Below are positions 5,102 to 42,600 of a stretch of 42,745 bases of DNA, in pieces. The stretch comes from a virus: the IMG/VR virus record IMGVR_UViG_3300019849_000002, positions 1-42,745 of that record; one strand, written 5' to 3'. A model generated the notes under the pieces. The model was not told where the DNA came from, did no database searches, and saw only the letters and a list, made by a program, of their open reading frames with translations. Within the stretch, counting starts at the first letter, position 1, and each line of letters opens with the position of its first letter. The translations under genes and the position numbers were made by a program.

Positions 5102-5298
5102 TTGTCTACTCCCTGACGAAAGGGACTTACTCTTTTTATGTCAGAAGTCCACAAACTGACAACTTCGGCCCCTACTTTCACGTATGCTATAGTCTTTAGT
5201 GGACTATAAGCTACTAGCTCCCCCTTCACTCTTATTGGGTTTATGTAGTTTAAAGTACCTGCTACTTTTGCACCAATCTTAATCACCATTTCCTCCAT
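5098..5298 (-). CDS. Hypothetical protein (~66 aa; start 5298 or 5289)
   Basis: Track ORF 5098..5403 is probably over-extended. Its upstream part overlaps, in another frame, a better membrane ORF (5283..5450). MEEMVIKIG has GGAGGA nearby. Confidence 0.5.
   Translation of the reverse strand: MEEMVIKIGAKVAGTLNYINPIRVKGELVAYSPLKTIAYVKVGAEVVSLWTSDIKRVSPFRQGVDK
5110..5125. repeat. PAL16 copy
   Basis: tccct-gacgaa-aggga; last codons of 5098..5298, 8 nt upstream of ATG 5101. Confidence 0.9.
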
Positions 5299-7340: not shown

Positions 7341-7456
7341 AGCGCACCTACTTTCTGGCGCTTGGTCTCTTCAAGAAAGATTTCTGCCTTGACTAGAGAC
7401 TTTTTTACTCTTCTGAAATGAGGATCAGTAGTCATTTCTGCGTGTGGATAAGCCAT
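7337..7456 (-). CDS. Small ORF (39 aa), below the ORF-track cut-off
   Basis: MAYPHAEMTTDPHFRRVKKSLVKAEIFLEETKRQKVGAL. ATG 7456 lies 7 nt after PAL16 arm TAGGGAGT, and its stop overlaps ATG 7340. Confidence 0.5.
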   Translation of the reverse strand: MAYPHAEMTTDPHFRRVKKSLVKAEIFLEETKRQKVGAL

Positions 7457-7459
7457 AAC

Positions 7460-7675
7460 TTACTCCCTATTCTTGGGGACTTTATAATCTACAAATTCAG
7501 GCCCTTGGTGAATGCAGGTTGCTTCAATCCAAACTTGGCTTTCCTCTGTAGAATAGTCTGCGCTTTGATCTAGAGCCTGCAGGATAGCAGTCTCTAGAAA
7601 CTCTTGGGCGGTATCGCGTGATGGATTGTCGTTATTACGCAATCTCACAACAAACATGTGTCCACCGTCACTCAT
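7460..7675 (-). CDS. Hypothetical acidic protein (71 aa)
   Basis: Track ORF with SD AGGAAA upstream. Its C-terminus VPKNRE-stop is encoded by a PAL16 copy. Confidence 0.7.
   Translation of the reverse strand: MSDGGHMFVVRLRNNDNPSRDTAQEFLETAILQALDQSADYSTEESQVWIEATCIHQGPEFVDYKVPKNRE
7464..7479. repeat. PAL16 copy
   Basis: tccct-attctt-gggga; last codons of 7460..7675, 7 nt upstream of ATG 7456. Confidence 0.9.
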
Positions 7676-8611: not shown

Positions 8612-8761
8612 TCATGCGTGTGCTGATATTAATATGAAGCCGACAACAGCAGCCAGTATTAGCAATAAGGCACCGCAAGCTAGCAATCCTATTACAACGT
8701 CTGGCCCAAAAAGCATGATCAACGTCATGATTATTAGTACTATCAAGATAGCCCATAACAT
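8612..8761 (-). CDS. Small membrane protein (49 aa), below the ORF-track cut-off
   Basis: MLWAILIVLIIMTLIMLFGPDVVIGLLACGALLLILAAVVGFILISAHA. ATG 8761 lies 8 nt after PAL16 arm TAGGGAGT. Confidence 0.55.
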   Translation of the reverse strand: MLWAILIVLIIMTLIMLFGPDVVIGLLACGALLLILAAVVGFILISAHA

Positions 8762-8769
8762 ATATCTAC

Positions 8770-8785
8770 TCCCTAGCTCTGGGGA
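8770..8785. repeat. PAL16 copy
   Basis: tccct-agctct-gggga; overlaps the 3' end of 8773..9528, 8 nt upstream of ATG 8761. Confidence 0.9.
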
Positions 8786-9528
8786 CTGCCAAGCAAAACT
8801 TGACCGCCCTTGTTAACTGACCTGCCTACGTCTGCACGACCACCAGCCATAGCGCCAGCAGCAGACGCTTTGTCATTGTGGCCCATCTTACCCATAGGTC
8901 CACCGCTACCCAAATGTACACCTAGCTCGCCCAACCTACGAATAGTCAAGTCTGACTTAACCAAAGCCAAGGCGGTACCGCTACCATCCGACGCCAACTC
9001 ATCATTCTCGCAAACCCACGCTTCCATTCTGCCCCACACCGCTCTAGACCAGCTACGATAGAAAGCTACACGCTCTTGTACTAAGTCAACATTGCGGCGG
9101 CTCGCACGTTTGTTCTTGTAGATGCGCCATTCATTGTCTGCCTGTTGTTTAAAGCTTTCCAGCATCCAAACACAGTACTCAACATCCATGTCGCGTCCAA
9201 AATAACGGATATAACGCTTGTTATCTAATGTAGTTATATCCCAATACTGGATACATCCACAAAACTTAGCAACACGCAGTCCCAAAAACCGATCAATAGG
9301 ATGAAATGCAGCTTTGCCGTCACGTGTGCGTCTCCCCATCTCGTCGCGATAACGATACTCATCAGCCTCTACATGAGCTAGATCACTTTCCGATATATCA
9401 TTTTTCTTCATCAGCTTTTGAGCTTTAGCCATACACGCTGCCGCCTCGCTTGCACTAGCACCGCTATCACTAGACTTTGTCAAAAGCGATTTGATTGTCT
9501 CTTTCAGCTTTTCCTTATCCACCGCCAT
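8773..9528 (-). CDS. DUF2786-like protein
   Basis: 251 aa. The N-terminal KSLLTKSSDSGASASEAAACMAKAQKLMKK fits the DUF2786 helical pattern, from memory. Confidence 0.65.
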   Translation of the reverse strand: MAVDKEKLKETIKSLLTKSSDSGASASEAAACMAKAQKLMKKNDISESDLAHVEADEYRYRDEMGRRTRDGKAAFHPIDRFLGLRVAKFCGCIQYWDITTLDNKRYIRYFGRDMDVEYCVWMLESFKQQADNEWRIYKNKRASRRNVDLVQERVAFYRSWSRAVWGRMEAWVCENDELASDGSGTALALVKSDLTIRRLGELGVHLGSGGPMGKMGHNDKASAAGAMAGGRADVGRSVNKGGQVLLGSPQS

Positions 9529-9898
9529 GACCCTCCTGCTCCCCAGCGCTAGGGAGATACTTTTCCTCTAGCTTGTCTGCTATGCCAGCAAAAGACAAAT
9601 GTTCATCGTCGTTTAGCTCGAATATATATTCACACATATAAGCAGCTAATTCTCTGTCTTTTATATCTTTTTCTGCTACAGTGTTAATAACTAATTCACG
9701 TTCTGGTGTGTAAAATCCCCAATGCGGGTTTTCTTGATCATCATTAAGGTCGTAAACTTTATTGCCGAAAGCCTCAGTTATAACTCCAATTGCACACATA
9801 CAATTCGGGTTTTTATAAGACACATAAGAGCCTGTGATCTGTACTTTATCAGTCTCACGTAAAGCCTTAATAGCTTCTCTAAGCTTATCTTCTCTCAT
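9515..9898 (-). CDS. Hypothetical protein (127 aa)
   Basis: Start moved to ATG 9898 (MREDKL). The track extension to 9925 reads through the 5'-UTR palindrome, whose arm TAGGGAAT lies 8 nt upstream. Confidence 0.7.
   Translation of the reverse strand: MREDKLREAIKALRETDKVQITGSYVSYKNPNCMCAIGVITEAFGNKVYDLNDDQENPHWGFYTPERELVINTVAEKDIKDRELAAYMCEYIFELNDDEHLSFAGIADKLEEKYLPSAGEQEGHGGG
9540..9555. repeat. PAL16 copy
   Basis: tcccc-agcgct-aggga; 3' end of 9515..9898, 11 nt upstream of ATG 9528. Confidence 0.9.
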
Positions 9899-9906
9899 CT
9901 CAGTAT

Positions 9907-9922
9907 TCCCTAGCAGTGGGGA
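9907..9922. repeat. PAL16 copy
   Basis: tccct-agcagt-gggga; in the 5' UTR between the promoter -10 and ATG 9898. Confidence 0.9.
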
Positions 9923-9942
9923 CAACCCCTGTTCACATACTA

Positions 9943-13037: not shown

Positions 13038-13068
13038 GCGTCCCTGTGCGACTTATGACTAGGGACGC
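13038..13068. repeat. PAL16-like, long-loop variant
   Basis: gcgtccct-15 nt-agggacgc (8-bp arms), just after the stop of 12580..13029. Confidence 0.7.
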
Positions 13069-13072
13069 ACAT

Positions 13073-13087
13073 TCCCTTGACTAGGGA
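13073..13087. repeat. PAL16 spacing variant (5-nt spacer)
   Basis: tccct-tgact-aggga; intergenic. Confidence 0.7.
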
Positions 13088-13094
13088 CTATCAT

Positions 13095-13111
13095 TCCCTA
13101 CTGATTAGGGA
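13095..13111. repeat. PAL16 spacing variant (7-nt spacer)
   Basis: tccct-actgatt-aggga; intergenic. Confidence 0.7.
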
Positions 13112-13138
13112 GTAGTTTAGTCACTCAACTATCATCAG

Positions 13139-13154
13139 TCCCTATCGTTAGGGA
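13139..13154. repeat. PAL16 copy
   Basis: tccct-atcgtt-aggga; intergenic. Confidence 0.9.
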
Positions 13155-13185
13155 ATTGAACTATCTCAACCGAGATAGTTCAATT
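13154..13185. repeat. Perfect 14-bp-stem hairpin/palindrome
   Basis: aattgaactatctc-aacc-gagatagttcaatt. Confidence 0.95.
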
Positions 13186-13237
13186 ATTCAACTAAATTAG
13201 TTCAATGATTAAACTATTCGGACGCACATAGTTGAAT
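13155..13237. repeat. Cluster of five TAGTT(C/G)AAT 9-mers in both orientations
   Basis: 13155..13163(-), 13176..13184(+), 13186..13194(-), 13198..13206(+), 13229..13237(+). Confidence 0.85.
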
Positions 13238-13356
13238 CGTTAAACGTGTTGTTGACCCCCCGCCCCCGGGCCTTGGGTCCCTCCGATAATTTTAGAGTAC
13301 CCCCTGTGCGAGAAAACGTTCTGTTTCAAAAATTTTTTGCCGATCGACTTTTTGAC

Positions 13357-13372
13357 TCCCTACTATCAGGGA
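13357..13372. repeat. PAL16 copy
   Basis: tccct-actatc-aggga; intergenic, flanked by A/T tracts. Confidence 0.9.
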
Positions 13373-13522: not shown

Positions 13523-13538
13523 TCCCCACCACTAGGGA
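13523..13538. repeat. PAL16 copy
   Basis: tcccc-accact-aggga; arm TAGGGAGT lies 10 nt upstream of ATG 13549. Confidence 0.9.
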
Positions 13539-13548
13539 GTACTTTCTA

Positions 13549-13767
13549 ATGTTCCTGAAACGCTGCATTCCGACCATAATCAGTGCTAATTTTGTTATTG
13601 ACAAAGCCTTGCTAGATAACGATATTATAGTGCCGATTACCGTCTATTTTGGGCTGGATGGAGAAGAGTGTGAAAAAGAGGAGGCGGTGACGTTTGTTGC
13701 TGGCAGCGATGACGAGGGATGGTTTGTTGACTATTTGGAAAACTTTTCAGAGCAACGGGTGAATTAG
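13549..13767 (+). CDS. Hypothetical acidic protein (72 aa)
   Basis: Track ORF; its stop overlaps the terL GTG (TAGTG). Confidence 0.65.
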   Translation: MFLKRCIPTIISANFVIDKALLDNDIIVPITVYFGLDGEECEKEEAVTFVAGSDDEGWFVDYLENFSEQRVN

Positions 13768-15212
13768 TGGACCTATCATTTCTAAGTCCCCAACAGCGGG
13801 GAATGGCTGAACCGATAATTCAGCAGTGCGCCATAAGCAGAGTATGGTTCATTGAAAACGTCCTCAAAGTCGAGAAAATTGAAGATTGGCAGCTTAAAGT
13901 ACTGAACGACTTAGATAATGGTATCTCTAAGATTTCAATACGTTCTGGTCACGGAGTAGGAAAAACCACTCTTTGCTCATGGTGCGCTCTACACTTTTTG
14001 TTATTCAGAAACGACGTTAAAGTTATCGTAACATCTCCATCGCAAAAGCAGTTGTCAGATGGTTTGATACCGGAGATTCAGAAATGGATTTCTAGACTGC
14101 CGCCTTGGATGAGTAGACAATTAACGACAACATCTGAGCGCGTTACGCGAGCGCCAGATACAATGAACCATTTTATATCGTTTCGTACCGCCAGAAAAGA
14201 GAACCCAGAAGCTTTGGCCGGTGTACATGCTGAGAGCGTTCTGATTTTGGTAGATGAGGCTTCTGGTGTAGAAGAGGTGATCTATGAAACAGGACAAGGT
14301 GCTCTATCAACGGAAGGCGCTATTGCTATTCTCATCGGGAACCCTACTAGACCATCTGGCTTCTTTTTCAAAACCCACACTGAGCTATCGGATTTGTGGA
14401 AAACATATAAGGTGGCGTGCCACGACAGTTCACGTGTATCAGAAGACTACATCGAAACGCAGAGACGGACTTATGGAGTTGACAGTCGTGAGTACAAGGT
14501 GCGCGTTCTCGGGGAATTTCCAGACAGTGGTGCCGACGCAGTTATACCTAGGGAATATGTTGAAAGTGCGCATGGTCGTGATATTACTCCCCACCGTGGG
14601 GGACTTGTTTGGGGCGTTGACCCGGGCAGGGGCGGTGACCCTAGCGGGTTTGTCGCGCGCCGTCCGAACGTTATTGAGAGTATAGTAGAGCTACGTTATG
14701 ATGACACTATGCGCGTTGTTGGATGGGTTAAAAAACGCTGGGATGAGTTACCTCCGGCAAAACGGCCCGAAACTATATTCGTTGACGCGATCGGTCTTGG
14801 TGCTGGTGTTGCTGACCGTCTTGCTGAGCTTGGGCTCCCTGTTATTGCTGTTAATGTATCTGAGCTTGCAAGTGGGAGTGAGCGTTATGTGCGCCTTCGA
14901 GACGAATTGTGGTATATGATAAGAGATTGGCTTGAGCCTCATGACGTTAGTATGCCGTCAATTGAAGCTGAGCCGTTGGTTGCTAAGATGACACACGAAT
15001 TATGTAGTGTTGAGAGTGAGATTATGAGTAACGGCAAAGTGCAAGTAGAGAGTAAGGAGCGTATGAAAAAGCGTGGTCTGAAATCTCCTAACTTGGCCGA
15101 TGCTTTGGCATTGACTTTTGCGCACGGTGGCGCTGTCATGAACGGAAGTTGGCCCACAGATTGGGGAAAACTGCCAGATTTGGATAATTACAAAGCGCCA
15201 CACATAATTTAA
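13767..15212 (+). CDS. terL: Terminase large subunit
   Basis: 481 aa. Motifs are Walker A SGHGVGKT, Walker B LILVDEAS, and nuclease-domain acidic motifs GVDPGRGGD and FVDAIGLGAGV. The GTG start at 13767 is assumed; ATG 13803 is an alternative. Confidence 0.88.
   Translation: MDLSFLSPQQRGMAEPIIQQCAISRVWFIENVLKVEKIEDWQLKVLNDLDNGISKISIRSGHGVGKTTLCSWCALHFLLFRNDVKVIVTSPSQKQLSDGLIPEIQKWISRLPPWMSRQLTTTSERVTRAPDTMNHFISFRTARKENPEALAGVHAESVLILVDEASGVEEVIYETGQGALSTEGAIAILIGNPTRPSGFFFKTHTELSDLWKTYKVACHDSSRVSEDYIETQRRTYGVDSREYKVRVLGEFPDSGADAVIPREYVESAHGRDITPHRGGLVWGVDPGRGGDPSGFVARRPNVIESIVELRYDDTMRVVGWVKKRWDELPPAKRPETIFVDAIGLGAGVADRLAELGLPVIAVNVSELASGSERYVRLRDELWYMIRDWLEPHDVSMPSIEAEPLVAKMTHELCSVESEIMSNGKVQVESKERMKKRGLKSPNLADALALTFAHGGAVMNGSWPTDWGKLPDLDNYKAPHII
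13787..13802. repeat. PAL16 copy
   Basis: tcccc-aacagc-gggga; 5' end of terL (SPQQRG). Confidence 0.9.
14588..14603. repeat. PAL16 copy
   Basis: tcccc-accgtg-gggga; inside terL (TPHRGG). Confidence 0.9.
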
Positions 15213-15333: not shown

Positions 15334-15534
15334 ATGAGCAAACCTTCGCACATTCTCAAATTCTTCGCTTACAAACATCTCCCTGTTGCTCTACGGCCTA
15401 TTTCTGAGGCTATTTATAGTGTCGCAGATGAGATGGATAGTAACTTGCCGGATTGTGCTGAGAAAAGCGCAGGATTGAGGAAACTTCTTGAAGCTAAAGA
15501 TTGCTTTGTCCGTGCAAAATTGGAGGAAAAGTAG
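15334..15534 (+). CDS. Hypothetical protein (66 aa)
   Basis: Track ORF with SD AAGGAAAAAAG. Confidence 0.7.
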   Translation: MSKPSHILKFFAYKHLPVALRPISEAIYSVADEMDSNLPDCAEKSAGLRKLLEAKDCFVRAKLEEK

Positions 15535-15716
15535 TGTCTGGTATTAGAGGAAAACGTAATCCTATGCCGAAAAAGGGGATGGCTCCTACAGGAATCTTTT
15601 CTACTCGTGGCAGTCAGAAAAAAGATCCTACAGGCCCTATGGCCAACTTGACAGGAAACAACGCAGATAAGGCGCGTAAAGACCCTGTTAAGCGTGACAA
15701 TCGGATTAAGAAGTAA
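15534..15716 (+). CDS. Small highly basic, low-complexity protein (60 aa)
   Basis: GTG start overlaps the upstream stop (TAGTG), with SD GGAGGA 8 nt upstream. The sequence VSGIRGKRNPMPKKG...KRDNRIKK is rich in K/R/G/P. Track start 15501 is rejected. Confidence 0.55.
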   Translation: MSGIRGKRNPMPKKGMAPTGIFSTRGSQKKDPTGPMANLTGNNADKARKDPVKRDNRIKK

Positions 15717-15732
15717 TCACCGACATTAGGGA
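15717..15732. repeat. PAL16 degenerate copy (left arm tcacc)
   Basis: tcacc-gacatt-aggga; arm TAGGGAGT lies 7 nt upstream of ATG 15740. Confidence 0.6.
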
Positions 15733-15739
15733 GTAAAAT

Positions 15740-15922
15740 ATGCGAGGCAAGTACACTAAGAAGGATGTTTCTCCGCCTATGAAGTCCAGTGCTGCTGGAA
15801 AGGGCGGTAATGGTGGGTACGAACATCGCTCAAAAATGACTGATACCCCAAGAGGTGGTAAAGTTACTATGTCCGATACTGCACGTACAGCTACAGGGAA
15901 ACCGTTGCCGGTTAAAAGTTAA
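15740..15922 (+). CDS. Small basic Gly/Lys-rich protein (60 aa)
   Basis: Track ORF reading MRGKYTKKDVSPPMKSSAAGKGGNGG..; TAATG overlap with the next gene. Confidence 0.6.
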   Translation: MRGKYTKKDVSPPMKSSAAGKGGNGGYEHRSKMTDTPRGGKVTMSDTARTATGKPLPVKS

Positions 15923-23075: not shown

Positions 23076-23089
23076 TAGTTAAACTGTAG

Positions 23090-23105
23090 TCCCTGTTATC
23101 AGGGA
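23090..23105. repeat. PAL16 copy with perfect 10-bp arms (23085..23110)
   Basis: tgtagtccct-gttatc-agggactaca; intergenic, 10 nt after the capsid stop. Confidence 0.95.
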
Positions 23106-23126
23106 CTACAATCAACGGAGAAAAAG

Positions 23127-23769: not shown

Positions 23770-24449
23770 TGGCTTTCGACTACGCTACTTTCAAGTCTTA
23801 TTTAGCCACATTTCTGTGGAAACAAGACGATGCTGATTTAGTAACTAATCTAGACAGCCTTATTCGTATGGCTAATGCTGAATTGAATACTAGGCTTGAC
23901 GTACAGCGTAGACAAGTCACTGTGACTATTTTGCCAGAAACTCAGGACTACTTATTGCCTGCTGATTATAGAACAATGGGCCTATTGTCTAATAATTCTA
24001 TAGGTAACTATCTGACTACCTCTGATCCTAAAATGCGCTCAACTACTCTTAATGACATTTATGCTTTGCGTGCTAGAGGAACTGAAATAACTCAGCCTTT
24101 TTACGCTGTAGACAAAAATAATGGGGTAGACGTTTTAAGATTAGTAGGACCATTTTCAACACAAAATCCGGGAGACTTTACTTTAGTATATAGAACTTCT
24201 GTTCCTGACTATCAAACTACTGATGCTTCATGGGTAGAAGATCTATACTTAGATTTATACGTTTATACAGTACTTTCTCACACAGCACCTTTTCTAAGAG
24301 AAGATGAAAGAATACCAGTATGGGCTGGTATGAAGGCAGAGGCCTTAAACTACGCATTAGAAGAGGATGCACATCACATGGATCATGGAGGTACACCGCT
24401 GCAAATGCAGCCACACCGCCAAGTCCCTAACACTAGGGACAGATGGTAA
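23769..24449 (+). CDS. Virion protein (226 aa), head-tail joining candidate by position
   Basis: Track ORF with a TAATG overlap upstream; no family recognised. Confidence 0.7.
   Translation: MAFDYATFKSYLATFLWKQDDADLVTNLDSLIRMANAELNTRLDVQRRQVTVTILPETQDYLLPADYRTMGLLSNNSIGNYLTTSDPKMRSTTLNDIYALRARGTEITQPFYAVDKNNGVDVLRLVGPFSTQNPGDFTLVYRTSVPDYQTTDASWVEDLYLDLYVYTVLSHTAPFLREDERIPVWAGMKAEALNYALEEDAHHMDHGGTPLQMQPHRQVPNTRDRW
24424..24439. repeat. PAL16 copy
   Basis: tccct-aacact-aggga; encodes the VPNTRD tail of 23769..24449, 9 nt upstream of ATG 24449. Confidence 0.9.
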
Positions 24450-24805
24450 TGCAGTTCAAAGATTATATGACAGTCTTTGTTCCAGTCACATTAGCAATTC
24501 TTGTCAATGTCGGTGCTGGAATGCAGATGTTTTTTGCTATGCAGTCTGATATAGCGGACAATGCTCAAGACATTGCTGAAATGGTGGACGACTTTAAGAC
24601 CACTAGAGCAGCTTATGACAATAGAGAAATTCGTCAATGGACTCGTATCAATGATGTAGAAGAAGACGTTATGTTAGCTCTGGCTAATGAGCGTGCTATA
24701 CAAGCGGTGCTTAACTCCGTGCAACAAGACGTTGAACTTCTCAGAGATGATATCAAGGAAAACAATTCTCTATTACGGCAACTCTTGACAAAAGGTGTAG
24801 AATGA
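24449..24805 (+). CDS. Holin-like membrane protein (one N-terminal TM plus coiled coil)
   Basis: MQFKDYMTVFVPVTLAILVNVGAGMQMFFAM.. It lies directly upstream of the endolysin. ATG 24443 is an alternative start. Confidence 0.5.
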   Translation: MQFKDYMTVFVPVTLAILVNVGAGMQMFFAMQSDIADNAQDIAEMVDDFKTTRAAYDNREIRQWTRINDVEEDVMLALANERAIQAVLNSVQQDVELLRDDIKENNSLLRQLLTKGVE

Positions 24806-25718: not shown

Positions 25719-25845
25719 GGCAACCAGAATAGAGCACGCTAAAGCTCTTCTTCAAGATGGAGGAAGAGTTTCTAGAGCAACAGGAGCTATTCTGCTAGGT
25801 CAAATAGATAGGGGCTGCGAGGCAGTCCCTACTGCTGGGGAATAA
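25615..25845 (+). CDS. o-spanin candidate (lipoprotein)
   Basis: MRTLILLTMMLSLTGC carries lipobox LTGC. It overlaps the i-spanin ORF out of frame and extends beyond it. Confidence 0.65.
   Translation: MRTLILLTMMLSLTGCVNWLVSQQTLNAALCSGTEATRIEHAKALLQDGGRVSRATGAILLGQIDRGCEAVPTAGE
25826..25841. repeat. PAL16 copy
   Basis: tccct-actgct-gggga; encodes the VPTAGE tail of the o-spanin, 5 nt upstream of ATG 25847. Confidence 0.9.
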
Positions 25846-25846
25846 C

Positions 25847-26566
25847 ATGGCTACACCAACACCATCTTACGGGTTTAACCTGCCGACTGTTGGAGGAGAT
25901 ACCAATATTTGGGGAGGTCTGTTAAACTCTAACTGGAGCTTAATGGACGATTTGCTTGACGGTACAACTCCTGTGGATGGTATTGCCATTACAGGAGGCA
26001 CTGTAGATAACGCAGTCATTGGTAGCGTTACTCCTTCTACTGCTTTATTTACAACAGCTAGCGCTACATCTTTTGTAGCAAGTGGATTCATAAATACTCC
26101 CCAATTTAATAGGGCTGCTGGGCAACGTATTACCATGCGTTTTAACGCTGTTGACTTGTTCAGGTTTGATGAAATCGGATTAAGATTTGGTGCAGCAGCG
26201 GCAGAAGTGTCCCTAGATCTACAAGATCGTACTGATGCTCTGTCCCTACCATTAGGGACTACTGCACAACGTCCTGCTGCTAGTGCTGGCAGACTACGCT
26301 ACAACTCTGACACTAATACATTTGAAGGGTCGGATGGCACTCAGTGGGGCACTGTAGGAGGCGGTACTGGACGTTTTAAAGGAGAAAACGGTACACAAGA
26401 CCCGACAGGAGTTGGTGCTGGTGATATATTCAGAGTTAATGAGAAAGAACTAAATACTGATGTTACTATAGAAGCTACAGAAAACGCTTCTTGTGCTGGA
26501 CCTTTAACTGTGGCTACAGGAGTGACTTTGACTGTATCTAGCGGAGGGGAGCTTGTAATACTATGA
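25847..26566 (+). CDS. Tail fibre-like protein
   Basis: 239 aa. The N-terminal YGFNLPTVGGDTNIWGGLLNSNWSLMDDLLDG is a motif I associate with phage fibre N-termini. Confidence 0.6.
   Translation: MATPTPSYGFNLPTVGGDTNIWGGLLNSNWSLMDDLLDGTTPVDGIAITGGTVDNAVIGSVTPSTALFTTASATSFVASGFINTPQFNRAAGQRITMRFNAVDLFRFDEIGLRFGAAAAEVSLDLQDRTDALSLPLGTTAQRPAASAGRLRYNSDTNTFEGSDGTQWGTVGGGTGRFKGENGTQDPTGVGAGDIFRVNEKELNTDVTIEATENASCAGPLTVATGVTLTVSSGGELVIL
26243..26258. repeat. PAL16 copy
   Basis: tccct-accatt-aggga; inside the fibre-like CDS (SLPLGT). Confidence 0.9.
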
Positions 26567-27655: not shown

Positions 27656-28170
27656 GCTATTACAAGCACAGTATTGTAGACGAAAATGACAGTCCATTAG
27701 ACTGGGGAGTTGTTCCTTTATGGTATAGAGAGCAACAGTTCACTGACATAGTTACCAACTTTGATCCAGAGGCGTTATCTTATCACGGAAAGTACGCCAT
27801 CGTTTGGGAAGATCCTGATGAGGATGCTCCGTGTAAAATAACTCGTCCGTCTCCTGTATGGCTTGCAATGGCTATGCACGGAGGTATCATTCCTCCTGTT
27901 CAAGTTTATTGGGCGCTAGCAGAGGATGAAGCTAACCCAGAGTTTAAAAAGCATACTAGAGGTCATCTTTTGCACGACACTCCTACAATGCGTCCTCTTA
28001 CAGAAGAAGAGGCTATGCAATATCTAGTGATGAAAGACGTTCCTCCTAGAGTTTGGAGAGACTATAGAGGAAACAAAACTATCTTAAAGATAGTGCCAAT
28101 AGAATTAATCCCTACCAATAGGGAGAACAGAAACGCTTGGGCTATCCAAGATTTAGGAGAAGCAGCATGA
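27652..28170 (+). CDS. Hypothetical protein (172 aa)
   Basis: Track ORF with ATGA overlaps at both ends. Confidence 0.75.
   Translation: MSYYKHSIVDENDSPLDWGVVPLWYREQQFTDIVTNFDPEALSYHGKYAIVWEDPDEDAPCKITRPSPVWLAMAMHGGIIPPVQVYWALAEDEANPEFKKHTRGHLLHDTPTMRPLTEEEAMQYLVMKDVPPRVWRDYRGNKTILKIVPIELIPTNRENRNAWAIQDLGEAA
27693..27708. repeat. PAL16 degenerate copy
   Basis: tccat-tagact-gggga (one mismatch in the left arm); coding. Confidence 0.45.
28109..28124. repeat. PAL16 copy
   Basis: tccct-accaat-aggga; 3' part of 27652..28170 (IPTNRE), 42 nt upstream of ATG 28167. Confidence 0.9.
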
Positions 28171-30064: not shown

Positions 30065-31068
30065 TGCCTCTTAACCTGCCTCCTAATCCAAATAGATTTA
30101 GGTCAATGCAACAATGGGCTCAAAACCTTTATGAGTTCTTATCTACCCAAACAGAGGCTAGCACTCAACGGCAACCACAACCTGTGTTGTTAGCTCATAA
30201 GTTACCAACAGGAGAGTTAGAACGTGCTTCTGTAGATGGGCTATTGATGTATGAGCCGGGGATTGGTGTAGTAGTATCTGAGAATGGAGCTTGGAGACCT
30301 ATGACAAGTGATTTTGGGCTTTTTATGGCGGAAAGAGAGATACAGAGATTATATGGAGATAACGTTTCTGTTGTTCGTACAGCAAAGTCTCTAGACAAGT
30401 TTGGCCGTAATGATGATATGGATACAGGAATAGTTAACACTATATGGGAAGGACCTACACAAGACGAGCCTTATATTCTAACTAATACTAACGATATTGA
30501 CAGGGTAGTTTCTACTAATGCTGCCGATACAATAGAAATAACTATTATTGGACACTCAAATAATGGAAGTGGGCTATTGACAGAAGTAATTCAAAATGTT
30601 ACATTAAATGGAACAACACCTGTAATTTTAGCAACACCTCTATTCCGCTGTCAACGTCTATATACGACAAATGGCGGGTCACCGTTGGTAGGTGAAATTA
30701 CAGTAGAGGACTCCAGTGGAAATGTATATAATATAATAGCTGCTGGAGAGCAACAGTCTTATAAATGCGCTTTTTCTACTGCTGACGGAGAATATCTTAT
30801 TATAACTCAAACTGAGTCAGGGGTTACTAGAACTCAAGATGGACAGGTAGACTTTAGTTTTGAGTCTAGGCTGGTAGGAGAAACATTTAAACCGATTAAG
30901 GGTAGAACATTTCGTAGAACAACAGGTGTGACTGACGATACAACGCCTTTGTTTCCGTGTCTAATCATTAGACCTAACTCTGATGTTCGAGCAATTGGAG
31001 TTTCTAATGCTAACAACATGGGAGCAACAGCAGAAATCTTTGGTTATTACGCGCAAGTAATAACGTAG
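30064..31068 (+). CDS. Virion structural protein (334 aa)
   Basis: Track ORF with a TAATG overlap. Its N-terminus MPLNLPPNPN echoes that of the preceding protein. Confidence 0.7.
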   Translation: MPLNLPPNPNRFRSMQQWAQNLYEFLSTQTEASTQRQPQPVLLAHKLPTGELERASVDGLLMYEPGIGVVVSENGAWRPMTSDFGLFMAEREIQRLYGDNVSVVRTAKSLDKFGRNDDMDTGIVNTIWEGPTQDEPYILTNTNDIDRVVSTNAADTIEITIIGHSNNGSGLLTEVIQNVTLNGTTPVILATPLFRCQRLYTTNGGSPLVGEITVEDSSGNVYNIIAAGEQQSYKCAFSTADGEYLIITQTESGVTRTQDGQVDFSFESRLVGETFKPIKGRTFRRTTGVTDDTTPLFPCLIIRPNSDVRAIGVSNANNMGATAEIFGYYAQVIT

Positions 31069-31084
31069 TCCCCAAGACTAGGGA
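31069..31084. repeat. PAL16 copy
   Basis: tcccc-aagact-aggga; starts right after stop TAG 31066..31068, with arm TAGGGAGA 7 nt upstream of ATG 31092. Confidence 0.9.
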
Positions 31085-31091
31085 GAGCAAA

Positions 31092-31502
31092 ATGAATCAA
31101 CATTTTAAAGGAGGAAATCTTGCAGGAGAGACTATCAATCTCATGCAAGATTTGTTGCGTTGGCAGCCTGAGATAGAAAAAGCCTTACGCAATCTTAATC
31201 ACATGTACTCCTTTAATGACGTTGTGATGATGATCGTACAAGGTCATAAACAGTTTTACTCTTATGATGATTGTTTTGTAATTATGGAGCTATCTGAATT
31301 TCCGGGCTACAAAACTTATCATTGCTTTTTAGGGGGTGGAAAGCTGTCTTCTATAACTTCTGTCGCAGAGCCGCAGATGATGGAAATTGGTGAAACATTA
31401 GGCTGCAAATATATCTCTTTTTCTGGTCGCCCAGCTTTTGAAAGAGCTTTGAAAGGTCAGGGATGGGAATCTAAGCTGCTGATAATGTATAAGGAAATAT
31501 AA
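31092..31502 (+). CDS. Hypothetical protein (136 aa)
   Basis: Track ORF. A faint acetyltransferase-like look (..GCKYISFSGRPAFERALKGQGW) is not relied on. Confidence 0.7.
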   Translation: MNQHFKGGNLAGETINLMQDLLRWQPEIEKALRNLNHMYSFNDVVMMIVQGHKQFYSYDDCFVIMELSEFPGYKTYHCFLGGGKLSSITSVAEPQMMEIGETLGCKYISFSGRPAFERALKGQGWESKLLIMYKEI

Positions 31503-39672: not shown

Positions 39673-39799
39673 AGCACCAACCCTCTTCTATAGCTATGTA
39701 GTAAGTTTTACCACTAAGCATTTTCCTTTTCTTTCCGCAACCATAACACCATACAGGTAACGTGTCGTAACGATAAGTGTGCGCACTGATACCACTCAT
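39596..39799 (-). CDS. Small zinc-ribbon protein (67 aa)
   Basis: WCYGCGKK...WCCENCGYIY gives two CxxC pairs; ATGA overlap upstream. Confidence 0.6.
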   Translation of the reverse strand: MSGISAHTYRYDTLPVWCYGCGKKRKMLSGKTYYIAIEEGWCCENCGYIYPKSFRKMGSKNKREDTF

Positions 39800-40050
39800 T
39801 TAATAAAGCCTAGCACCTCTTTTATTTCACGTTCTTTTTCTTTCATTCCAGCTTGATAAGCTACGTTCATCATTTTAGCTACAGACTCAGCTTGCTCTAA
39901 TGTATGAAAATTTCTGTTAGGATACTCTGCCCAAGAATAGTAACCGAGTCCTTGGCCCGGACCAGTAACACAGAAACTGCCGCAACCGTATGCTTCTCTG
40001 TCTTTTAAACTAGCTCCATTTATAGTAGCTGTATAAACATCTTTAGTCAT
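39796..40050 (-). CDS. Hypothetical protein (84 aa)
   Basis: Start moved to ATG 40050 (MTKDVYTAT) with SD AAGGAAA. The track extension to 40092 would overlap the DNA polymerase 3' end and reads through a degenerate palindrome. Confidence 0.65.
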   Translation of the reverse strand: MTKDVYTATINGASLKDREAYGCGSFCVTGPGQGLGYYSWAEYPNRNFHTLEQAESVAKMMNVAYQAGMKEKEREIKEVLGFIK

Positions 40051-40057
40051 TTTTATT

Positions 40058-40073
40058 TCCTTGTCGTTAGGGA
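40058..40073. repeat. PAL16 degenerate copy
   Basis: The sense strand reads TAG-TCCCT-aacgac-AAGGA. It abuts the polymerase stop, 7 nt upstream of ATG 40050. Confidence 0.5.
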
Positions 40074-41927
40074 CTACGGTTTTGCAGCCCAAGTTGTTCC
40101 TATTGCATGATCAGTGAGGTTGTCTGTACTAGTGCCGGGGAAAATATCTAGCCAGCCATCTCTCATACCTAATAGCTGTTGTGTCATAGCCGCCTCAGCG
40201 TCATCTTTATGAGCATGAGAAATCAGTTCGTCGTGTACTGTAATAGCCATAAACGCATCAAGATCATATTTGATAAATCTTTCTCTAGTGCGAATCATAG
40301 CTCTATACATTACAGAGCCAGCAGCAGCTTGAATAGGATAGTTAGCAGCAATGGGCATTGATCTATCAGCTTTATTTACATAGATAGTTCTACCGTCGCA
40401 GACAGGCAAAAAGCCATCTATCATCATCAGATCAAACATTTGCTCCCTGTAGTTATAAGCTTTAGGATAACGTTGAGCCCATAGCATAATAGCTTCTTCT
40501 GCTTCTTCAAAAGTACATTTAAGAACGTCAGACAATGCAGCAGCACCAGCACCATATAGCAACTGGAAAGTAAACCCTTTAGCTTTAGAGCGTTGTTCTT
40601 TAATAACTGGATATATATTCGCATATCCACCAGCACCTTCACTCTTAAGCACTTCTAAAACATATTCATAATCATGACCATACAATTGCGCAGCAGACGC
40701 AGAGTGTACATCGCCATAAACAGCATCTTCTAATAGTACTTCATCACCGCTTAATTCTGCTAGTACACGGATTTCGATACCTGAATAGTCTGCGAGACAG
40801 AGTAGTCTTTCTCCTGAAGGTGTAACAAACGCTCTACGTACAACAGGCTTGCGAGGTATGTTTTGGAGGTTCGACGAGGAGGAAGAAAAACGACAAGTTT
40901 TTGCGGCTGCGATATTAAAAGACGAATAAATTCGTCCTGCCAAGTTTTGCTTTGTAATGAGTGTTTCGCCGTAAGTTGACAAGTATTTTTTGTGGTACTT
41001 GTATCGAGCCAGTGCAACGAGCCAACGCGAGAAAGGATAGTTGACCCTGCGAGCGACGGAGAGTAGATATTTACTTTCAAGCTTTAACCTCTTCTTTTTA
41101 GTTGTGCGCGGCCATTTAGCAAGCAGATGCTCTGGTAGCTCATTCTCAAGAAACTTGCCTATCTGAACGTCACTTCCTAGGTTAGTAATAATCTCTTTAG
41201 GAGTAAAACGTCTAAGCACAGCTTCTGCTATCTTAAACTTTTTATCCCATACAGATACTAGTCCCCGGTGATAGGGAATATTAAGTTTAATACCTTCTGC
41301 TTCACATTCTAAAGTGGGACGAACTGCCTCATCAAATATGAAGTATGCAGCTTCCTGTTGTTCTGTTGTAGTTTCTTCTAGCCAATGGCAAACTAGCTTC
41401 CAAGTAACGTATCCATCAAAACCAGCATAGTTTATCTGGCTTTCTGTAAGCCTTGGCTGAGACCAATCGCTAGCTTGTTCTCCTTTATCTAGCTTAATAT
41501 TCAATTCTCTAGCCATCATAGCTAGACTAGCTGGACCACCGCCCATCTTTGCTTTCTTAAGAAATTGAACGTCTCTTACGTCTGTACGATCATGCCCAAA
41601 TGCATGATCTATCCATGTAATTTCAAATTTAGAATAAAAAGCGTACCATTCTATACCTTGAAAATCTTCTGCGTAATCTTCCAAAGGTCCTAAAAAATCG
41701 TGATCTATGAGAAATTGACAATCATCGTTACAGACAGAAGTAAGCCTAATTCTGCCTCCATTAGATGTTGGATAAAGGGCGGTAGTTTCAAAGTCAATAG
41801 CAGCAATACCGCTTTCTTTGACTTTAGCAAACAGCGCATGGGCTTCTTCAACTGTTTCGACAATACGACAGTTCTTAATACTCTTACGTAGTTCTTGCTC
41901 TGTTGTCTTTTCTACCACCCCCTGCAT
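40074..41927 (-). CDS. Family-A DNA polymerase with 3'-5' exonuclease domain
   Basis: 617 aa. Motifs are ExoI AIDFETT, motif A DYSGIEIRVLA, motif B RSKAKGFTFQLLYG and motif C VHDELI. Confidence 0.9.
   Translation of the reverse strand: MQGVVEKTTEQELRKSIKNCRIVETVEEAHALFAKVKESGIAAIDFETTALYPTSNGGRIRLTSVCNDDCQFLIDHDFLGPLEDYAEDFQGIEWYAFYSKFEITWIDHAFGHDRTDVRDVQFLKKAKMGGGPASLAMMARELNIKLDKGEQASDWSQPRLTESQINYAGFDGYVTWKLVCHWLEETTTEQQEAAYFIFDEAVRPTLECEAEGIKLNIPYHRGLVSVWDKKFKIAEAVLRRFTPKEIITNLGSDVQIGKFLENELPEHLLAKWPRTTKKKRLKLESKYLLSVARRVNYPFSRWLVALARYKYHKKYLSTYGETLITKQNLAGRIYSSFNIAAAKTCRFSSSSSNLQNIPRKPVVRRAFVTPSGERLLCLADYSGIEIRVLAELSGDEVLLEDAVYGDVHSASAAQLYGHDYEYVLEVLKSEGAGGYANIYPVIKEQRSKAKGFTFQLLYGAGAAALSDVLKCTFEEAEEAIMLWAQRYPKAYNYREQMFDLMMIDGFLPVCDGRTIYVNKADRSMPIAANYPIQAAAGSVMYRAMIRTRERFIKYDLDAFMAITVHDELISHAHKDDAEAAMTQQLLGMRDGWLDIFPGTSTDNLTDHAIGTTWAAKP
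41262..41277. repeat. PAL16 copy
   Basis: tcccc-ggtgat-aggga; inside the polymerase CDS. Confidence 0.9.
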
Positions 41928-42349
41928 TATGTTAACACCGCCTTCAACTGGTCAGAATAAGTCACAATGTGATCAGCCATAAGAGCCATTAGTTCTGGTT
42001 CTTCTCCATCACAAGTGTAAATAATGAGTCTCTTGCCTCTGCCTTTTGCGTAACCGCCCTCAAGGTGAGCAGACCTTCCACAAGGCAAAAGCAACACGCA
42101 AGTATCACACCACTCTAGAGCACGCATGTCAGATAAAAATCCATGAGATGCTATAGGAGTATTAAGAGCATCTACATATTCATCAGCATCCCAATTTTTC
42201 CAATTAGGATCAATGTCTGACCAAGAAAAGCCTGTCTTTCCCAGAGGGTTTCTAAAGTCATATACCAAATGACCCCAAGACTTTAAAATCTCTACCATTT
42301 CAGGCTGTTGCTCGTTTCTCCAAGAAGAAGCTAGATAAATGCGTCTCAT
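41927..42349 (-). CDS. Nucleoside 2-deoxyribosyltransferase-like protein
   Basis: 140 aa. RIYLASSWRN ... CGRSAHLEGGYAKGRGKRLIIY resembles the NDT/Rcl fold signature (IYLAGP ... DxGTxxExGyAxaxGKP). Confidence 0.6.
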   Translation of the reverse strand: MRRIYLASSWRNEQQPEMVEILKSWGHLVYDFRNPLGKTGFSWSDIDPNWKNWDADEYVDALNTPIASHGFLSDMRALEWCDTCVLLLPCGRSAHLEGGYAKGRGKRLIIYTCDGEEPELMALMADHIVTYSDQLKAVLT

Positions 42350-42600
42350 TCTTTCTTCTCCCCAGCGTCAGGGACATTCGCATTCTGTAAGGAACGATCC
42401 ACAAGGTTAAACATGTGCTGAATCCACAAGAGGGCGGTATCGAGTTGTCGCAAAGATGCGTCGCGCTCGTAACATTCTGGCATTTGGCGCAATACATCAT
42501 AGATTGTATCACTAGCCTGCCCAAGCTCTTTTCTCAGTTCCTCTAGAGAAATGTCCTGTACAGTCTCAGCTTTCTTGACTTTCTCAGTCTGTTCTTTCAT
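42346..42600 (-). CDS. Hypothetical protein (84 aa)
   Basis: Track ORF with ATGA overlaps at both ends. Its C-terminal NVPDAGEKKE is encoded by a PAL16 copy. Confidence 0.7.
   Translation of the reverse strand: MKEQTEKVKKAETVQDISLEELRKELGQASDTIYDVLRQMPECYERDASLRQLDTALLWIQHMFNLVDRSLQNANVPDAGEKKE
42359..42374. repeat. PAL16 copy
   Basis: tcccc-agcgtc-aggga; sense arm TGGGGAGA lies 9 nt upstream of ATG 42349. Confidence 0.9.

Follow-up and report, generated by a model that had tools for sequence, protein, structure and literature searches.

Most known cases of short sequences repeated throughout a phage genome, among them stoperators, start-associated sequences (SAS) and the Cluster O palindromes, come from actinobacteriophages. 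Cluster O mycobacteriophages carry a 17-bp dyad repeat, 5'-TGTTCGGNNNCCGAACA (TGTTCGG-N3-CCGAACA), and a dimeric DNA-binding protein has been proposed as its reader (PMC4351075). The Cluster K SAS/ESAS have a 13-bp asymmetric consensus, 5'-GGGATAGGAGCCC, in a single orientation, with little evidence, in the authors' view, that the ESAS inverted repeats form RNA hairpins (PMC3203893). Cluster A stoperators are present as more than 20 copies of a 13-mer site for an L5 gp71-type repressor (PMC9283540). These three families appear to be the closest analogues of the element described here. A sequence-only reading of the same DNA had named the Cluster K SAS as the closest analogy; that comparison is kept, with the Cluster O palindromes and the stoperators beside it. 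A precedent of a different kind is the hairpin that masks a Shine-Dalgarno (SD) sequence, as in the coat/replicase region of RNA coliphages (Q-beta work, PMC2978339); there, as here, the SD can pair with an upstream stretch in or near the preceding cistron.

The window, a stretch of 42,745 nt from an IMG/VR virus record, is a complete podophage genome (circular assembly, ~42.6 kb) that encodes an SU10-type portal and capsid, PolA, a PrimPol-helicase, RusA and a RecE/Cas4-like exonuclease. The sequence TCCC-N8-GGGA occurs in it 49 times, against 0.23 expected from dinucleotide shuffles, the largest of which contained 2. With spacers of N7-N9 there are 54 copies genome-wide, on both transcription arms. 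The palindrome is 16-20 bp long, with the consensus tA(G/C)TCCC-Y-A-n-Y-R-n-T-R-GGGA(G/C)Ta, in which the central nYRn is palindromic too. Of the 54 copies, 37 lie wholly inside ORFs and 17 are not wholly in coding sequence; ~40, about three quarters, are away from starts. If such a family is taken to need at least 30 dyad-symmetric copies with invariant arms, spread over intergenic, start-proximal and in-ORF positions, all 54 belong to one.

How does this family compare with the described systems? The Cluster O palindromes resemble it in number and layout: dozens of short palindromes genome-wide, with invariant arms around a variable centre; copies between genes, near gene starts and clearly within ORFs; locations that relatives mostly share; and a host genome that lacks the repeat. 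They differ in their sequence, which is unrelated, and in belonging to Mycobacterium siphoviruses, which are not related phages. Their centre is fixed at 3 bp, whereas the spacer here varies between and within related genomes, and no SD role, even spacing or orthologous in-ORF copies in several reading frames has been reported for them, all of which are seen here. The Cluster K SAS share a repeated motif placed 3-7 bp before starts (mostly ATG) with the SD core inside it; the upstream stop codon may fall within the motif, which is conserved across subclusters. However, SAS are asymmetric and lie in one orientation, whereas the element here is palindromic, and SAS are found nearly always at starts and in the non-structural half only, whereas about three quarters of the copies here are elsewhere, many of them in ORFs and on both arms. 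Stoperators are similar in having copies genome-wide, many in short intergenic spaces beside stop or start codons, but they are asymmetric, monomer-bound and strictly oriented with transcription, unlike the symmetric sites here. They also belong to temperate phages with a known repressor, whereas neither an HTH repressor nor an integrase was found here with Pfam, PHROGs and NCBIfam in ~47 of the ~60 ORFs, the large and early ones. Finally, in established SD-masking hairpins the stability of the stem matters and is maintained, whereas the stems here are marginal, show no covariation, and recur as the same sequence where there is no start.

Thirteen exact and two degenerate copies end 4-12 nt 5' of a start codon. 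Random placement gives 0.71 exact copies at this distance, with a largest value of 5 in 2000 trials, and the excess is also seen when only genes of at least 100 aa are considered (8 start-associated copies vs 0.46 expected). The sequence-only reading had listed 14 such junctions, and all 14 are present, including the one that it used as its example (31066..31094). It had described a downstream GGGAG arm at a distance of 5-11 nt from the start. GGGAG is found at 10 of the 14, the exceptions being GGGAA at 9898 and 25847, GGGAC at 24449 and AAGGAA at 40050, and the distance must be corrected to 4-10 nt, counted between the fifth base of the arm and the ATG. At 15740 the downstream GGGAG is as described and the upstream arm is degenerate (TCAC). 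The GGAG of the arm lies 5-9 nt before the ATG, a spacing identical to that of SDs in palindrome-free genes. The further claim that the arm is the SD stands at 13 of the 14 junctions, where it is the sole SD-like sequence; at 9528, a separate GGAGG between the arm and the ATG is the likelier, and better, SD. A G directly after GGGA is found in 10 of 13 start copies compared to 13 of 41 others (p=0.008). Thus counted, 13-15 copies place an SD core a few nucleotides before a start, as SAS do, 10 of them with GGAG. The position and composition of the arm show that, in its GGGAG variant, the 3' half of the junction copies is the predicted SD of the downstream gene.

Codon-usage scores back 12 of the 14 downstream ORFs, with the 49-aa ORF at 8761 doubtful and the 39-aa ORF at 7456 weak, and the starts at 3054, 25847 and 31092 correspond to residue 1 of orthologues in related phages. 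On the other side of the junction, the 5' half falls in the last codons or the stop codon of the upstream gene. Specifically, the upstream ORF reads through the entire palindrome at 5101, 7456, 9528, 24449, 25847 and 42349, ends inside it at 1784 and 8761, and has a stop abutting the 5' arm at 15740, 31092 and 40050. The upstream cistron therefore terminates in or next to the palindrome at 11 of the 14 junctions, as had been noted from the sequence, and the four C-terminal tails quoted at that time are correct. The starts at 3054, 9898 and 13549 have no nearby upstream ORF. The TA flank is conserved and often provides the upstream gene's stop codon. The start-associated copies are members of the larger family that sit in junctions too short for the element plus a separate SD. 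The junctions are listed in Table 1 with the other copies discussed below.

Table 1. Start-associated palindromes, with selected copies elsewhere in the window
Positions	Strand	Feature	Context
1782..1807	-	Copy 1792-1807; GGGAG 6 nt before ATG 1784	Upstream ORF 1798..1995 terminates in the loop (..SPR-stop); hairpin z -0.7
3052..3077	-	Copy 3061-3077 (N9); GGGAG 5 nt before ATG 3054	ATG opens Cas4/RecE-like exonuclease; start confirmed by L159 orthologue; no upstream ORF within 97 nt
5099..5125	-	Copy 5110-5125; GGGAG 7 nt before ATG 5101	Upstream ORF runs through the copy and ends in an ATGA overlap
7454..7479	-	Copy 7464-7479	Upstream tail ..VPKNRE-TAA, then ATG 7456 of a 39-aa ORF (weak coding support)
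8759..8785	-	Copy 8770-8785	DUF2786/DUF7168 ORF ends inside (..SPQS-TAG); ATG 8761 of a doubtful 49-aa ORF; minimum-energy fold is not the arm hairpin
9526..9555	-	Copy 9540-9555	Lies within the final part of ORF 9515..9898; before ATG 9528
9896..9922	-	Copy 9907-9922, arm GGGAA; 7 nt before ATG 9898	Predicted to lie in the 5' UTR that follows a sigma-70-like promoter, 9971-9943
13040..13372	.	Cluster of four exact copies (13073, 13095, 13139, 13357)	Non-coding 520 bp preceding the TerL operon; also one long-spacer GTCCC..GGGAC pair at 13040-13066
13523..13551	+	Copy 13523-13538; GGGAG 9 nt before ATG 13549	No upstream ORF; ATG opens a 72-aa ORF upstream of TerL
14588..14603	+	In-ORF copy	5-residue linker between TerL ATPase and nuclease domains
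15717..15742	+	Degenerate copy (TCAC..GGGAG); 6 nt before ATG 15740	Abuts TAA of 15501..15716; weak homologues of the 60-aa product in L159 and L164
19227..19242	+	In-ORF copy	Variable loop of portal protein, about residue 175
23085..23110	+	Extended member, 11-bp stem	Just after major capsid gene; terminator-like, without U-tract
24424..24451	+	Copy 24424-24439, arm GGGAC	Adaptor ORF tail ..RQVPNTRDRW-stop; TAATG overlap with ATG 24449; copy also in L161 and L162; hairpin -14.7 kcal/mol, z -3.8
25826..25849	+	Copy 25826-25841, arm GGGGAA	Tail ..AVPTAGE-TAA, 1 nt before ATG 25847; start and copy both conserved in L161 and L162; L162 upstream ORF stops before the copy
28109..28139	+	Possible 15th case; copy 28109-28124, GGGAG 11 nt before TTG 28137	Start codon uncertain
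31066..31094	+	Example junction, TAG-TCCCCAAGACTAGGGAG-AGCAAA-ATG; palindrome 31069-31084, GGGAG arm, ATG 31092	TAG at 31066 is the stop of a 334-aa ORF; ATG matches residue 1 of L001 orthologue; hairpin -7.8 kcal/mol, z -2.8, one of only two significant among 14
40048..40076	-	Degenerate copy 40058-40073 (TCCC..AGGA); 6 nt before ATG 40050	Abuts PolA TAG
42347..42374	-	Copy 42359-42374; GGGAG 8 nt before ATG 42349	Tail ..NVPDAGEKKE-stop; ATGA overlap

Related uncultured podophages place these junctions in a wider setting. Most sampled relatives (TerL 53-77% identical, G+C 43-57%) carry the element: its TCCC(C)/(G)GGGA arms are invariant, its spacer (7-10 nt) is genome-specific, and spacer lengths are also mixed within single genomes (L161, N7 x19 and N8 x6; L166, N8 x20 and N7 x10; L162, N7 x15 and N8 x7). 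The nearest relative, with a 77% identical TerL, is without the motif. No close relative was found in a scan of JGI metagenomes and no nucleotide match to the genome among GenBank phages, the nearest of which have <45% TerL and <30% portal identity and include no mycobacteriophage. Copies in the relatives lie mainly between genes, 64 of 104 not being wholly inside coding sequence in DNA that is 84-90% coding. A separate SD usually follows the copy, with only 0-4 copies per locus in SD position. In spacers of at least 60 nt there is a modest bias toward the next start (15 of 37 vs 9.7 expected, P=0.025). What the sequence-only reading took for a subclass of a local oddity is better described as the compact-junction form of a clade-conserved element.

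Copies inside essential genes are also shared. The copy in the TerL linker is found in L161, L162, L164 and L166, in two reading frames, and the linker has the same length in genomes without the copy, which indicates that the copy arose by substitution rather than insertion. The copy in the portal loop is also present in L001, L160, L161, L162, L165 and L166, where it encodes S-P or V-P depending on the frame; the motif-free L159 has a 3-codon gap at this site. Orthologous in-ORF copies in different frames indicate that the element is selected at the nucleic-acid level. After the capsid gene, seven genomes have 11-13-bp stems with compensatory flanks, suggesting that at least some copies act as real hairpins, and L159 has an ordinary intrinsic terminator at this position. 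In G+C-rich relatives, the stems consist of 5-8 perfect pairs with 3-6-nt loops.

The copies are evenly spaced at ~0.8 kb, with a coefficient of variation (CV) of 0.58 for the gaps compared to 0.97-0.98 for random placement; the gaps between gene starts are unlike this, with a CV of 1.04. The largest gaps are ~1.9 kb in three genomes, and even spacing is not significant in 4 of the 7 genomes tested. An equivalent of the cluster upstream of the TerL operon is found in relatives. Centre-to-centre spacings of 23 and 43.5 bp are near whole helical turns, and near-integral helical phasing is seen in 5 of 6 close pairs. The even spacing and the phased pre-TerL clusters are signs of a role at the DNA level.

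What might read such an element? The palindrome is most likely a sequence-specific recognition site for a putative factor. More fully, the sites of the whole family, across the clade, would be recognized by one sequence-specific trans-acting factor, and where the spacers between genes collapsed, the element's 3' half would have been recruited as the SD; we give this combined account an even chance of being right. Without the factor, the junctions would behave as ordinary, tightly coupled stop-SD-start junctions in which the short hairpin of the arms masks the SD weakly. We lean toward a dimeric protein that would bind duplex DNA through both half-sites; lytic phages would then have their own counterpart of the Cluster O palindromes or stoperators, and the junction copies would place the factor directly on the DNA encoding the ribosome-binding site. 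An RNA or single-stranded-DNA stem-loop is almost as probable a target. Indeed, the mixing of spacers within single genomes argues against a rigid duplex-DNA dimer site and would easily be tolerated by a loop, and both the 11-13-bp post-capsid stems and the perfect, short-loop stems of the G+C-rich relatives point the same way.

The sequence-only reading had favored another account, that a dedicated cis hairpin hides the SD until it is melted by a ribosome reaching the end of the upstream ORF, which would give translational coupling or timing without any trans-acting factor. We regard this as unlikely, despite several features that fit it. Pairing of the two arms gives the minimum-energy fold at 10 of the 14 junctions (in at least two it does not), with an SD pairing probability of 0.3-1.0 where this hairpin is predicted, so some masking of the SD is possible. 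The stop codons are also well placed, lying within the palindrome or immediately to either side of it at the 11 junctions noted above and, at 8 junctions, within ~13 nt of the ATG or overlapping it, the classical coupling geometry. Hairpins of -5 to -10 kcal/mol at ribosome-binding sites reportedly depress initiation (de Smit and van Duin), and hairpins with such energies here would fall in that range. However, the junction hairpins are mostly of 4-6 bp and -2 to -15 kcal/mol, many having a 4-bp stem (UCCC/GGGA) and an 8-nt loop, and only 2 of the 14 junction RNAs are more stable than their dinucleotide shuffles (z -2.8 and -3.8). Start copies are, if anything, weaker than the others (-7.3 vs -9.4 kcal/mol), and 7 of the 13 exact ones have a C-A mismatch adjoining the 4-bp core. 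In the palindrome family as a whole, the pairs at positions 5/12 are T-A (17), T-G (14), C-A (13) and C-G (3). The variable mirror positions do not covary, either within the genome or summed over 11 genome/spacer sets (436 Watson-Crick pairs vs 424 +/- 12 expected), nor do the S/S flanks. G-U is not preferred over A-C on the sense strand, and there is no orientation bias outside the start copies (sense G..G 30 vs C..C 20, p=0.2). Neither covariation nor a sense-only tolerance of G-U, the marks of a stem maintained by selection, is therefore seen. The proposed melting by an upstream ribosome fails at the three junctions that have no upstream ORF. The cis hairpin also leaves unexplained the ~40 identical copies elsewhere, including the orthologous in-ORF ones, and the element in relatives usually lies upstream of a separate, unmasked SD. 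The predicted SD-masking hairpin is thus weak, and the pattern appears to favor sequence-specific half-sites over a selected stem.

A stem-loop could instead be read in RNA by a sequence-specific binding protein or nuclease, as a translational operator of the T4 RegA or MS2 coat type or as a processing or stability signal at cistron boundaries, in which case the operators at junctions would overlap the ribosome-binding site. For a factor that grips a 4-5-bp stem, further pairing would be unnecessary, and this reading accommodates invariant arms with a loop that varies in length and sequence within and between genomes, copies near starts and stops, and the true, lengthened hairpins that follow the capsid and TerL genes. 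We consider it somewhat unlikely, given that there is no sense asymmetry (in G-U vs A-C, in loop sequence, or in GGGAG vs CTCCC outside start copies), that the consensus is palindromic within the supposed loop, that copies cluster in long untranslated DNA and are evenly spaced over both transcription arms, that the in-ORF copies have no evident RNA role, and that there is no Rfam match. The even ~0.8 kb spacing, with its limited largest gaps, and its independence of transcription direction would suit single-stranded-DNA or cruciform signals for replication or recombination, for example priming sites for the PrimPol-helicase on both strands or boundary sequences that promote modular recombination. 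The genome encodes a suitable set of enzymes (PrimPol-helicase, PolA, RusA and the RecE/Cas4-like exonuclease), in-ORF copies are found at domain linkers, and copies of the Cluster O palindrome are reported to recombine with each other (PMC4351075). Such signals predict neither the link to starts nor the adaptation of the arm to GGGAG, and the even spacing is not significant in more than half of the genomes tested (4/7), making this improbable. The least probable account, which we would put close to dismissal, would make the copies selfish elements of the kind known as REP/RAYT elements, Rickettsia palindromic elements or cyanobacterial small dispersed repeats: miniature palindromes that were inserted and are tolerated at junctions. 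The number of copies, their permissive locations and the 3-codon gap at the portal site of L159 are what such insertions would leave, but the TerL copy arose by substitution with no change in linker length, positions are orthologous across phages at only ~60% protein identity, no transposase was found, and no multi-copy genome was among the matches listed in a scan of 185,579 species.

No DNA-binding protein conserved across the relatives and matching the sites was found with Pfam, PHROGs, NCBIfam or PDB sequences. A DUF2786/DUF7168 early protein occurs in all motif-bearing relatives for which the early region was covered, making it a weak candidate by co-occurrence; it is present also in the motif-free L177, and the co-occurrence rests on very few motif-free genomes. 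A search for DUF2786 homologues gave one usable match, and the two-sequence AlphaFold model had a pLDDT of 49. More speculatively, and with considerable doubt, the element may be part of an undescribed clade-wide system of uncultured aquatic podophages in which one factor, bound at ~50 even sites per genome, switches ~14 genes where its sites overlap ribosome-binding sites. If so, lytic phages would have an equivalent of stoperators or SAS that works on DNA or on mRNA.

Several other explanations for the palindromes were rejected. A repeat borne by the host is not indicated, as AGTCCCYANNNNTRGGGACT gave scattered single matches among those listed (one genome per species, 185,579 species), and a scan of IMG/VR for the palindrome likewise gave single matches only. 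No known RNA family or tRNA was found. The copies do not appear to be promoters for the downstream gene because only 4-30 nt separate the palindrome from the start, too little for a -10 box, a transcription start and an SD together. Nor do they appear to mark internal translation starts within ORFs, since no conserved start codon follows the TerL copy. Intrinsic terminators are rejected because the copies lack U-tracts; in a scan for a G+C-rich stem plus U-tract, no start-associated copy qualified, and the only matches were 11888-11915 (minus) and the in-ORF copy at 14588, a total no greater than in shuffles. LUZ24/tf-type nick sites have a different consensus, and a palindrome would be nicked on both strands.

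What are the implications of this family? It adds an example of phage-wide short repeats in an unrelated, uncultured podophage clade, with informative comparative evidence: invariant arms against a drifting spacer, copies in essential genes in different frames, and even spacing. In one compact genome, the 3' half appears to have been adapted into the SD. If a trans-acting factor exists, the sites would amount to a level of regulation or architecture that spans the genomes of lytic phages, and the junction copies would provide a natural way to distinguish action on DNA from action on mRNA. The element may also be useful for annotation because it flags true start codons and can correct ORF extensions in the clade. 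For example, the N-terminal extension in ORF 2275..3141 had been called an artefact from the sequence, and the orthologue does begin at the residue matching ATG 3054; the extensions in 9515..9925 and 39796..40092 are plausibly artefacts of the same kind.

The 14 start-associated junctions, named by the position of their ATG, match their description in the sequence-only reading, and they are part of a much larger family of palindromes. TCCC-N8-GGGA occurs 49 times in the window, compared with 0.23 copies expected from dinucleotide-preserving shuffles, and allowing spacers of N7–N9 raises the count to 54. The consensus of the window copies is tA(G/C)TCCC-Y-A-n-Y-R-n-T-R-GGGA(G/C)Ta. The start-associated copies are a special case of a clade-wide, evenly spaced palindrome with conserved positions, which is the more interesting result.

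What is the evidence that the downstream arm is a Shine-Dalgarno sequence (SD)? Exact copies end 4–12 nt before a start codon 13 times, versus 0.71 for random placement, and 8 times versus 0.46 if only genes of at least 100 aa are considered; two listed junctions, 15740 and 40050, have one degenerate arm each. The distance from GGAG to ATG at the junctions (5–9 nt) equals the SD spacing of other genes, taken from the 28 of 47 with a canonical AGGA, GGAG or GAGG, and the arm is the sole SD-like sequence at every junction save 9528. GGGA is followed by G in 10 of the 13 start copies, versus 13 of the 41 others (Fisher p=0.008), which is direct evidence that the junction copies are tuned as SDs. 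With this spacing, G enrichment and lack of another SD-like sequence, the proposal that the arm is the SD is well supported. The form (A/G)GGGAG(T/A), attributed to all 14 arms, was too uniform: GGGAG is present in 10, but the others read GGGAA (twice), GGGAC and AAGGAA.

The upstream arm was said to overlap the stop codon or C-terminal codons of the preceding ORF. This applies to 11 of the 14 junctions, where the upstream ORF continues through the whole palindrome in six cases, terminates within it in two and stops immediately before it in three, but not to the remaining three, which have no upstream ORF. The four C-terminal tails quoted (VPKNRE, AVPTAGE, VPNTRDRW and NVPDAGEKKE) and the two abutments of TAG with TCCC (31066 and 40074) are correct. 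Codon-usage scoring backs 12 of the 14 downstream ORFs, and the 60-aa product from 15740 has weak homologues in two relatives. The starts at 3054, 25847 and 31092 coincide in alignments with the first residue of orthologues; for 3054, this confirms that the N-terminal extension in 2275..3141 is an artefact. Elsewhere, the minus-strand ORFs 1406–1654 and 1557–1784 overlap by 98 nt; the former scores poorly for coding and lacks an SD, so one of these two gene calls is probably wrong.

The sequence-only reading also placed the SD in a hairpin that a ribosome terminating on the upstream ORF would melt. Such masking is possible from predicted energies, but the coupling mechanism, while possible, is unsupported. 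The junction RNAs have local fold energies between -2 and -15 kcal/mol, with many stems consisting of UCCC/GGGA alone around an 8-nt loop. With the folding tool used, only 2 of the 14 are more stable than their shuffles, namely 31092 (z -2.8) and 24449 (z -3.8); the median z is ~-0.5, and at 8761 and 9898 the minimum-energy fold differs from the arm–arm hairpin. Start-associated copies fold more weakly than the rest (mean -7.3 versus -9.4 kcal/mol), and sense and antisense strands fold equally. No covariation was seen at variable mirror positions of the palindrome. Indeed, the pairs at positions 5/12 (T-A 17, T-G 14, C-A 13, C-G 3) are as expected for two half-sites drifting independently, C-A mismatches are as frequent as U-G wobbles on the sense strand, and Watson-Crick pairs at polymorphic mirror positions number 436 versus 424 +/- 12 expected, summed over eleven genome/spacer sets. 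With few folds above shuffles, weaker start copies and no covariation, SD masking shows no sign of selection.

The wider family was followed in a large group of 38–44-kb contigs from aquatic and other metagenomes, defined by homologues of the large terminase (TerL). The comparison covered ~20 kb around TerL from eight relatives and sixteen more IMG/VR loci (L-numbers denote these uncultured phage loci). Of the eight relatives, seven contain TCCC(C)...(G)GGGA, as do most of the longer IMG/VR loci, at ~1 copy per kb and across genomes of 43–57% G+C. With spacers measured as the number of bases separating TCCC from GGGA, the preferred length is N7 in L161, L162 and L164, N8 in the window, L001/L180, L166 and L182, and N9 in L165, L168 and L171; several genomes mix two lengths. 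Longer-arm variants are CCCTAC-NN-GTAGGG in L179 and CCCTAA-N-TTAGGG in L173. No palindrome was found in L159, the closest relative by TerL (77% identity). Its early region differs and encodes a DNA pol III beta-clamp and an ArdC-like protein; it also has short repeats of its own, TTTTGA-N6-TCAAAA (four copies) and CCCGGG-N12-CCCGGG (five).

Where do the copies lie? In the window, 17 of 54 are not wholly within an ORF, although the coding fraction is 93%; the figure is 64 of 104 in five relatives with called genes (84–90% coding). In those relatives, only 0–4 copies per locus are placed as SDs, and the others are usually followed by a distinct SD. The start-associated class is thus the same element in a genome whose junctions are too short for element plus SD. 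In spacers of at least 60 nt, 15 of 37 copies are no more than 32 nt from the next start, compared with 9.7 for random placement in the same spacer (P=0.025), with a weaker trend for copies just past the upstream stop (10 versus 6.2, P=0.06). All genomes examined have copies clustered in the long non-coding region that precedes TerL. Gaps between window copies are unusually even (CV 0.58 versus 0.98 by chance, P <0.001; largest gap 1.9 kb versus 3.6 kb expected), and this is not a by-product of gene layout, since gene-start spacing has a CV of 1.04. Spacing is similarly even in L161 and L162, and evenness is not significant in four other loci tested. Near-integral helical turns separate 5 of 6 close pairs, a small sample (p ~0.04 by our own binomial estimate).

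Many positions are orthologous. A copy just downstream of the capsid gene is present in seven genomes, with stems of 11–13 bp and flanks that differ and compensate; L159 has a plain intrinsic terminator there, with no motif. The window and six relatives carry a portal copy at ~residue 175, in an indel-rich loop, read as TCC-CCn (S-P) in some genomes and GTC-CCC (V-P) in others; the L159 portal lacks three codons at this site. In five genomes, a TerL copy occupies the five-residue linker between ATPase and nuclease domains, in two frames, and the linker has the same length in genomes without the copy (one residue longer in L159). Junction copies 24449 and 25847 are present in L161 and L162, and at the 25847 junction in L162 the upstream ORF stops before the copy rather than reading through. 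Orthologous positions in differing frames show selection on the nucleotide sequence itself and, with the unchanged TerL linker length, argue against simple mobile-element insertion.

On sequence evidence, the palindrome is most likely recognised as a specific sequence by a candidate trans-acting factor, rather than selected for its fold. Such a factor is favoured by arms that stay invariant across hosts of differing base composition, a symmetric inner sequence particular to each genome, and half-sites that vary independently. The choice between duplex DNA and a stem-loop as the form recognised is nearly even, with a slight preference for the duplex, read by a dimer. In favour of the duplex, the symmetry of the consensus extends through its centre (nYRn), covariation and strand asymmetry are absent, and copies are evenly spaced and clustered in non-coding DNA. 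A stem-loop would better fit the mixed spacer lengths inside single genomes, the extended post-capsid hairpins with compensatory flanks, and the perfect 5–8-bp stems in G+C-rich relatives. Searches of Pfam, PHROGs, NCBIfam and PDB sequences found no protein binder. A DUF2786/DUF7168 early protein (8773–9528) is encoded in 9 of 9 motif-bearing loci whose early region is seen and is absent from the 10 kb seen of L159; a diverged version is present in motif-free L177.

Among known systems, the best match in kind is the palindrome of Cluster O mycobacteriophages, which has >30 copies, is conserved in position among relatives and is absent from the host; of the 34 copies in Corndog, 14 lie between genes, 10 lie close to 5' ends and 10 fall within ORFs, and a dimeric binder has been proposed (PMC4351075). 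The start-associated sequences (SAS) of Cluster K, previously put forward as the closest analogy, do resemble the junction copies in adjoining starts, embedding an SD core and containing stop codons, but they are asymmetric, single-orientation and essentially start-confined (PMC3203893). Stoperators are likewise many sites laid out in junctions, but they lack symmetry, depend on orientation and are linked in temperate phages to a known repressor (PMC9283540). None of the defining sequences or proteins of these three systems is present in the window, so its palindrome is not a member of any of them.

Coordinates and strand of the main annotated genes in the window
Feature	Coordinates	Strand
Large terminase (TerL)	13767-15212	
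SU10-type portal	18705-20831	
PrimPol-helicase	37140-39158	opposite to terminase/virion genes
PolA	40074-41927	opposite to terminase/virion genes

The virion genes also encode a scaffold protein, an SU10-type capsid protein, a beta-helix tail protein and an M15 peptidase-bearing virion protein; RusA, a Cas4/RecE-like exonuclease and an SNF2 helicase are on the PolA strand. Genes run leftward in 1–12300 and 37140–42745 and rightward between. Bases 1–119 are identical to 42627–42745, so the window is a circular assembly and a complete genome of ~42.6 kb unique length. It has no nucleotide match among GenBank phages, and protein matches are weak at best (TerL <45%, portal <30%). The minus-strand replication module holds a nucleoside 2-deoxyribosyltransferase-like protein and a DUF6378 protein (41927–42349 and 5450–5998), which may hint at nucleotide or DNA-base metabolism. 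A 95-aa early protein (6563–6850, minus strand) has an NrdR-type zinc ribbon (Pfam E=9e-7), a DNA-binding module in NrdR, and was not found in the relatives examined.

Several individual elements were also observed. On the minus strand, a family copy at 11888–11915 has its stem lengthened to 12 bp, with a T-rich tail after it. It lies 40 nt upstream of ATG 11848, which opens the first leftward gene, and could be a terminator, attenuator or 5'-UTR hairpin. A copy with a 12-bp stem at 15293–15320, in the gap that separates TerL from the next gene (15334), resembles the post-capsid hairpin. A near-consensus sigma-70-type promoter, TTGACA-17-TATATT (11/12 matches; 9943–9971, minus strand), sits in a 585-bp gene-poor stretch between a 454-aa early gene and ATG 9898, which would put the palindrome at 9907–9922 in a 5' UTR. 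The strong G/C hairpin GGTCCCCCCTATGGGGGGAGGGACC (12492–12516, ~-18 kcal/mol) lies within the weakly supported ORF 12366–12587, just downstream of a rightward promoter-like site (12214–12242). In L162, the asymmetric 15-mer TCCCCTACTGGGGGA has six copies across 533–12610, all on the plus strand in the same orientation over both transcription arms, a pattern that may stem from recent copying of one site to another or from a constraint linked to the strand. The C-rich element ACCCCCCGCCCCCGGGCCTTGGGTCCC, followed by an AT-rich stretch, is conserved in at least four genomes (window 13256–13285, L001 3255, L160 479, L161 9173) in the long non-coding region ahead of the TerL operon, and may serve as a pac site, origin or regulatory site.
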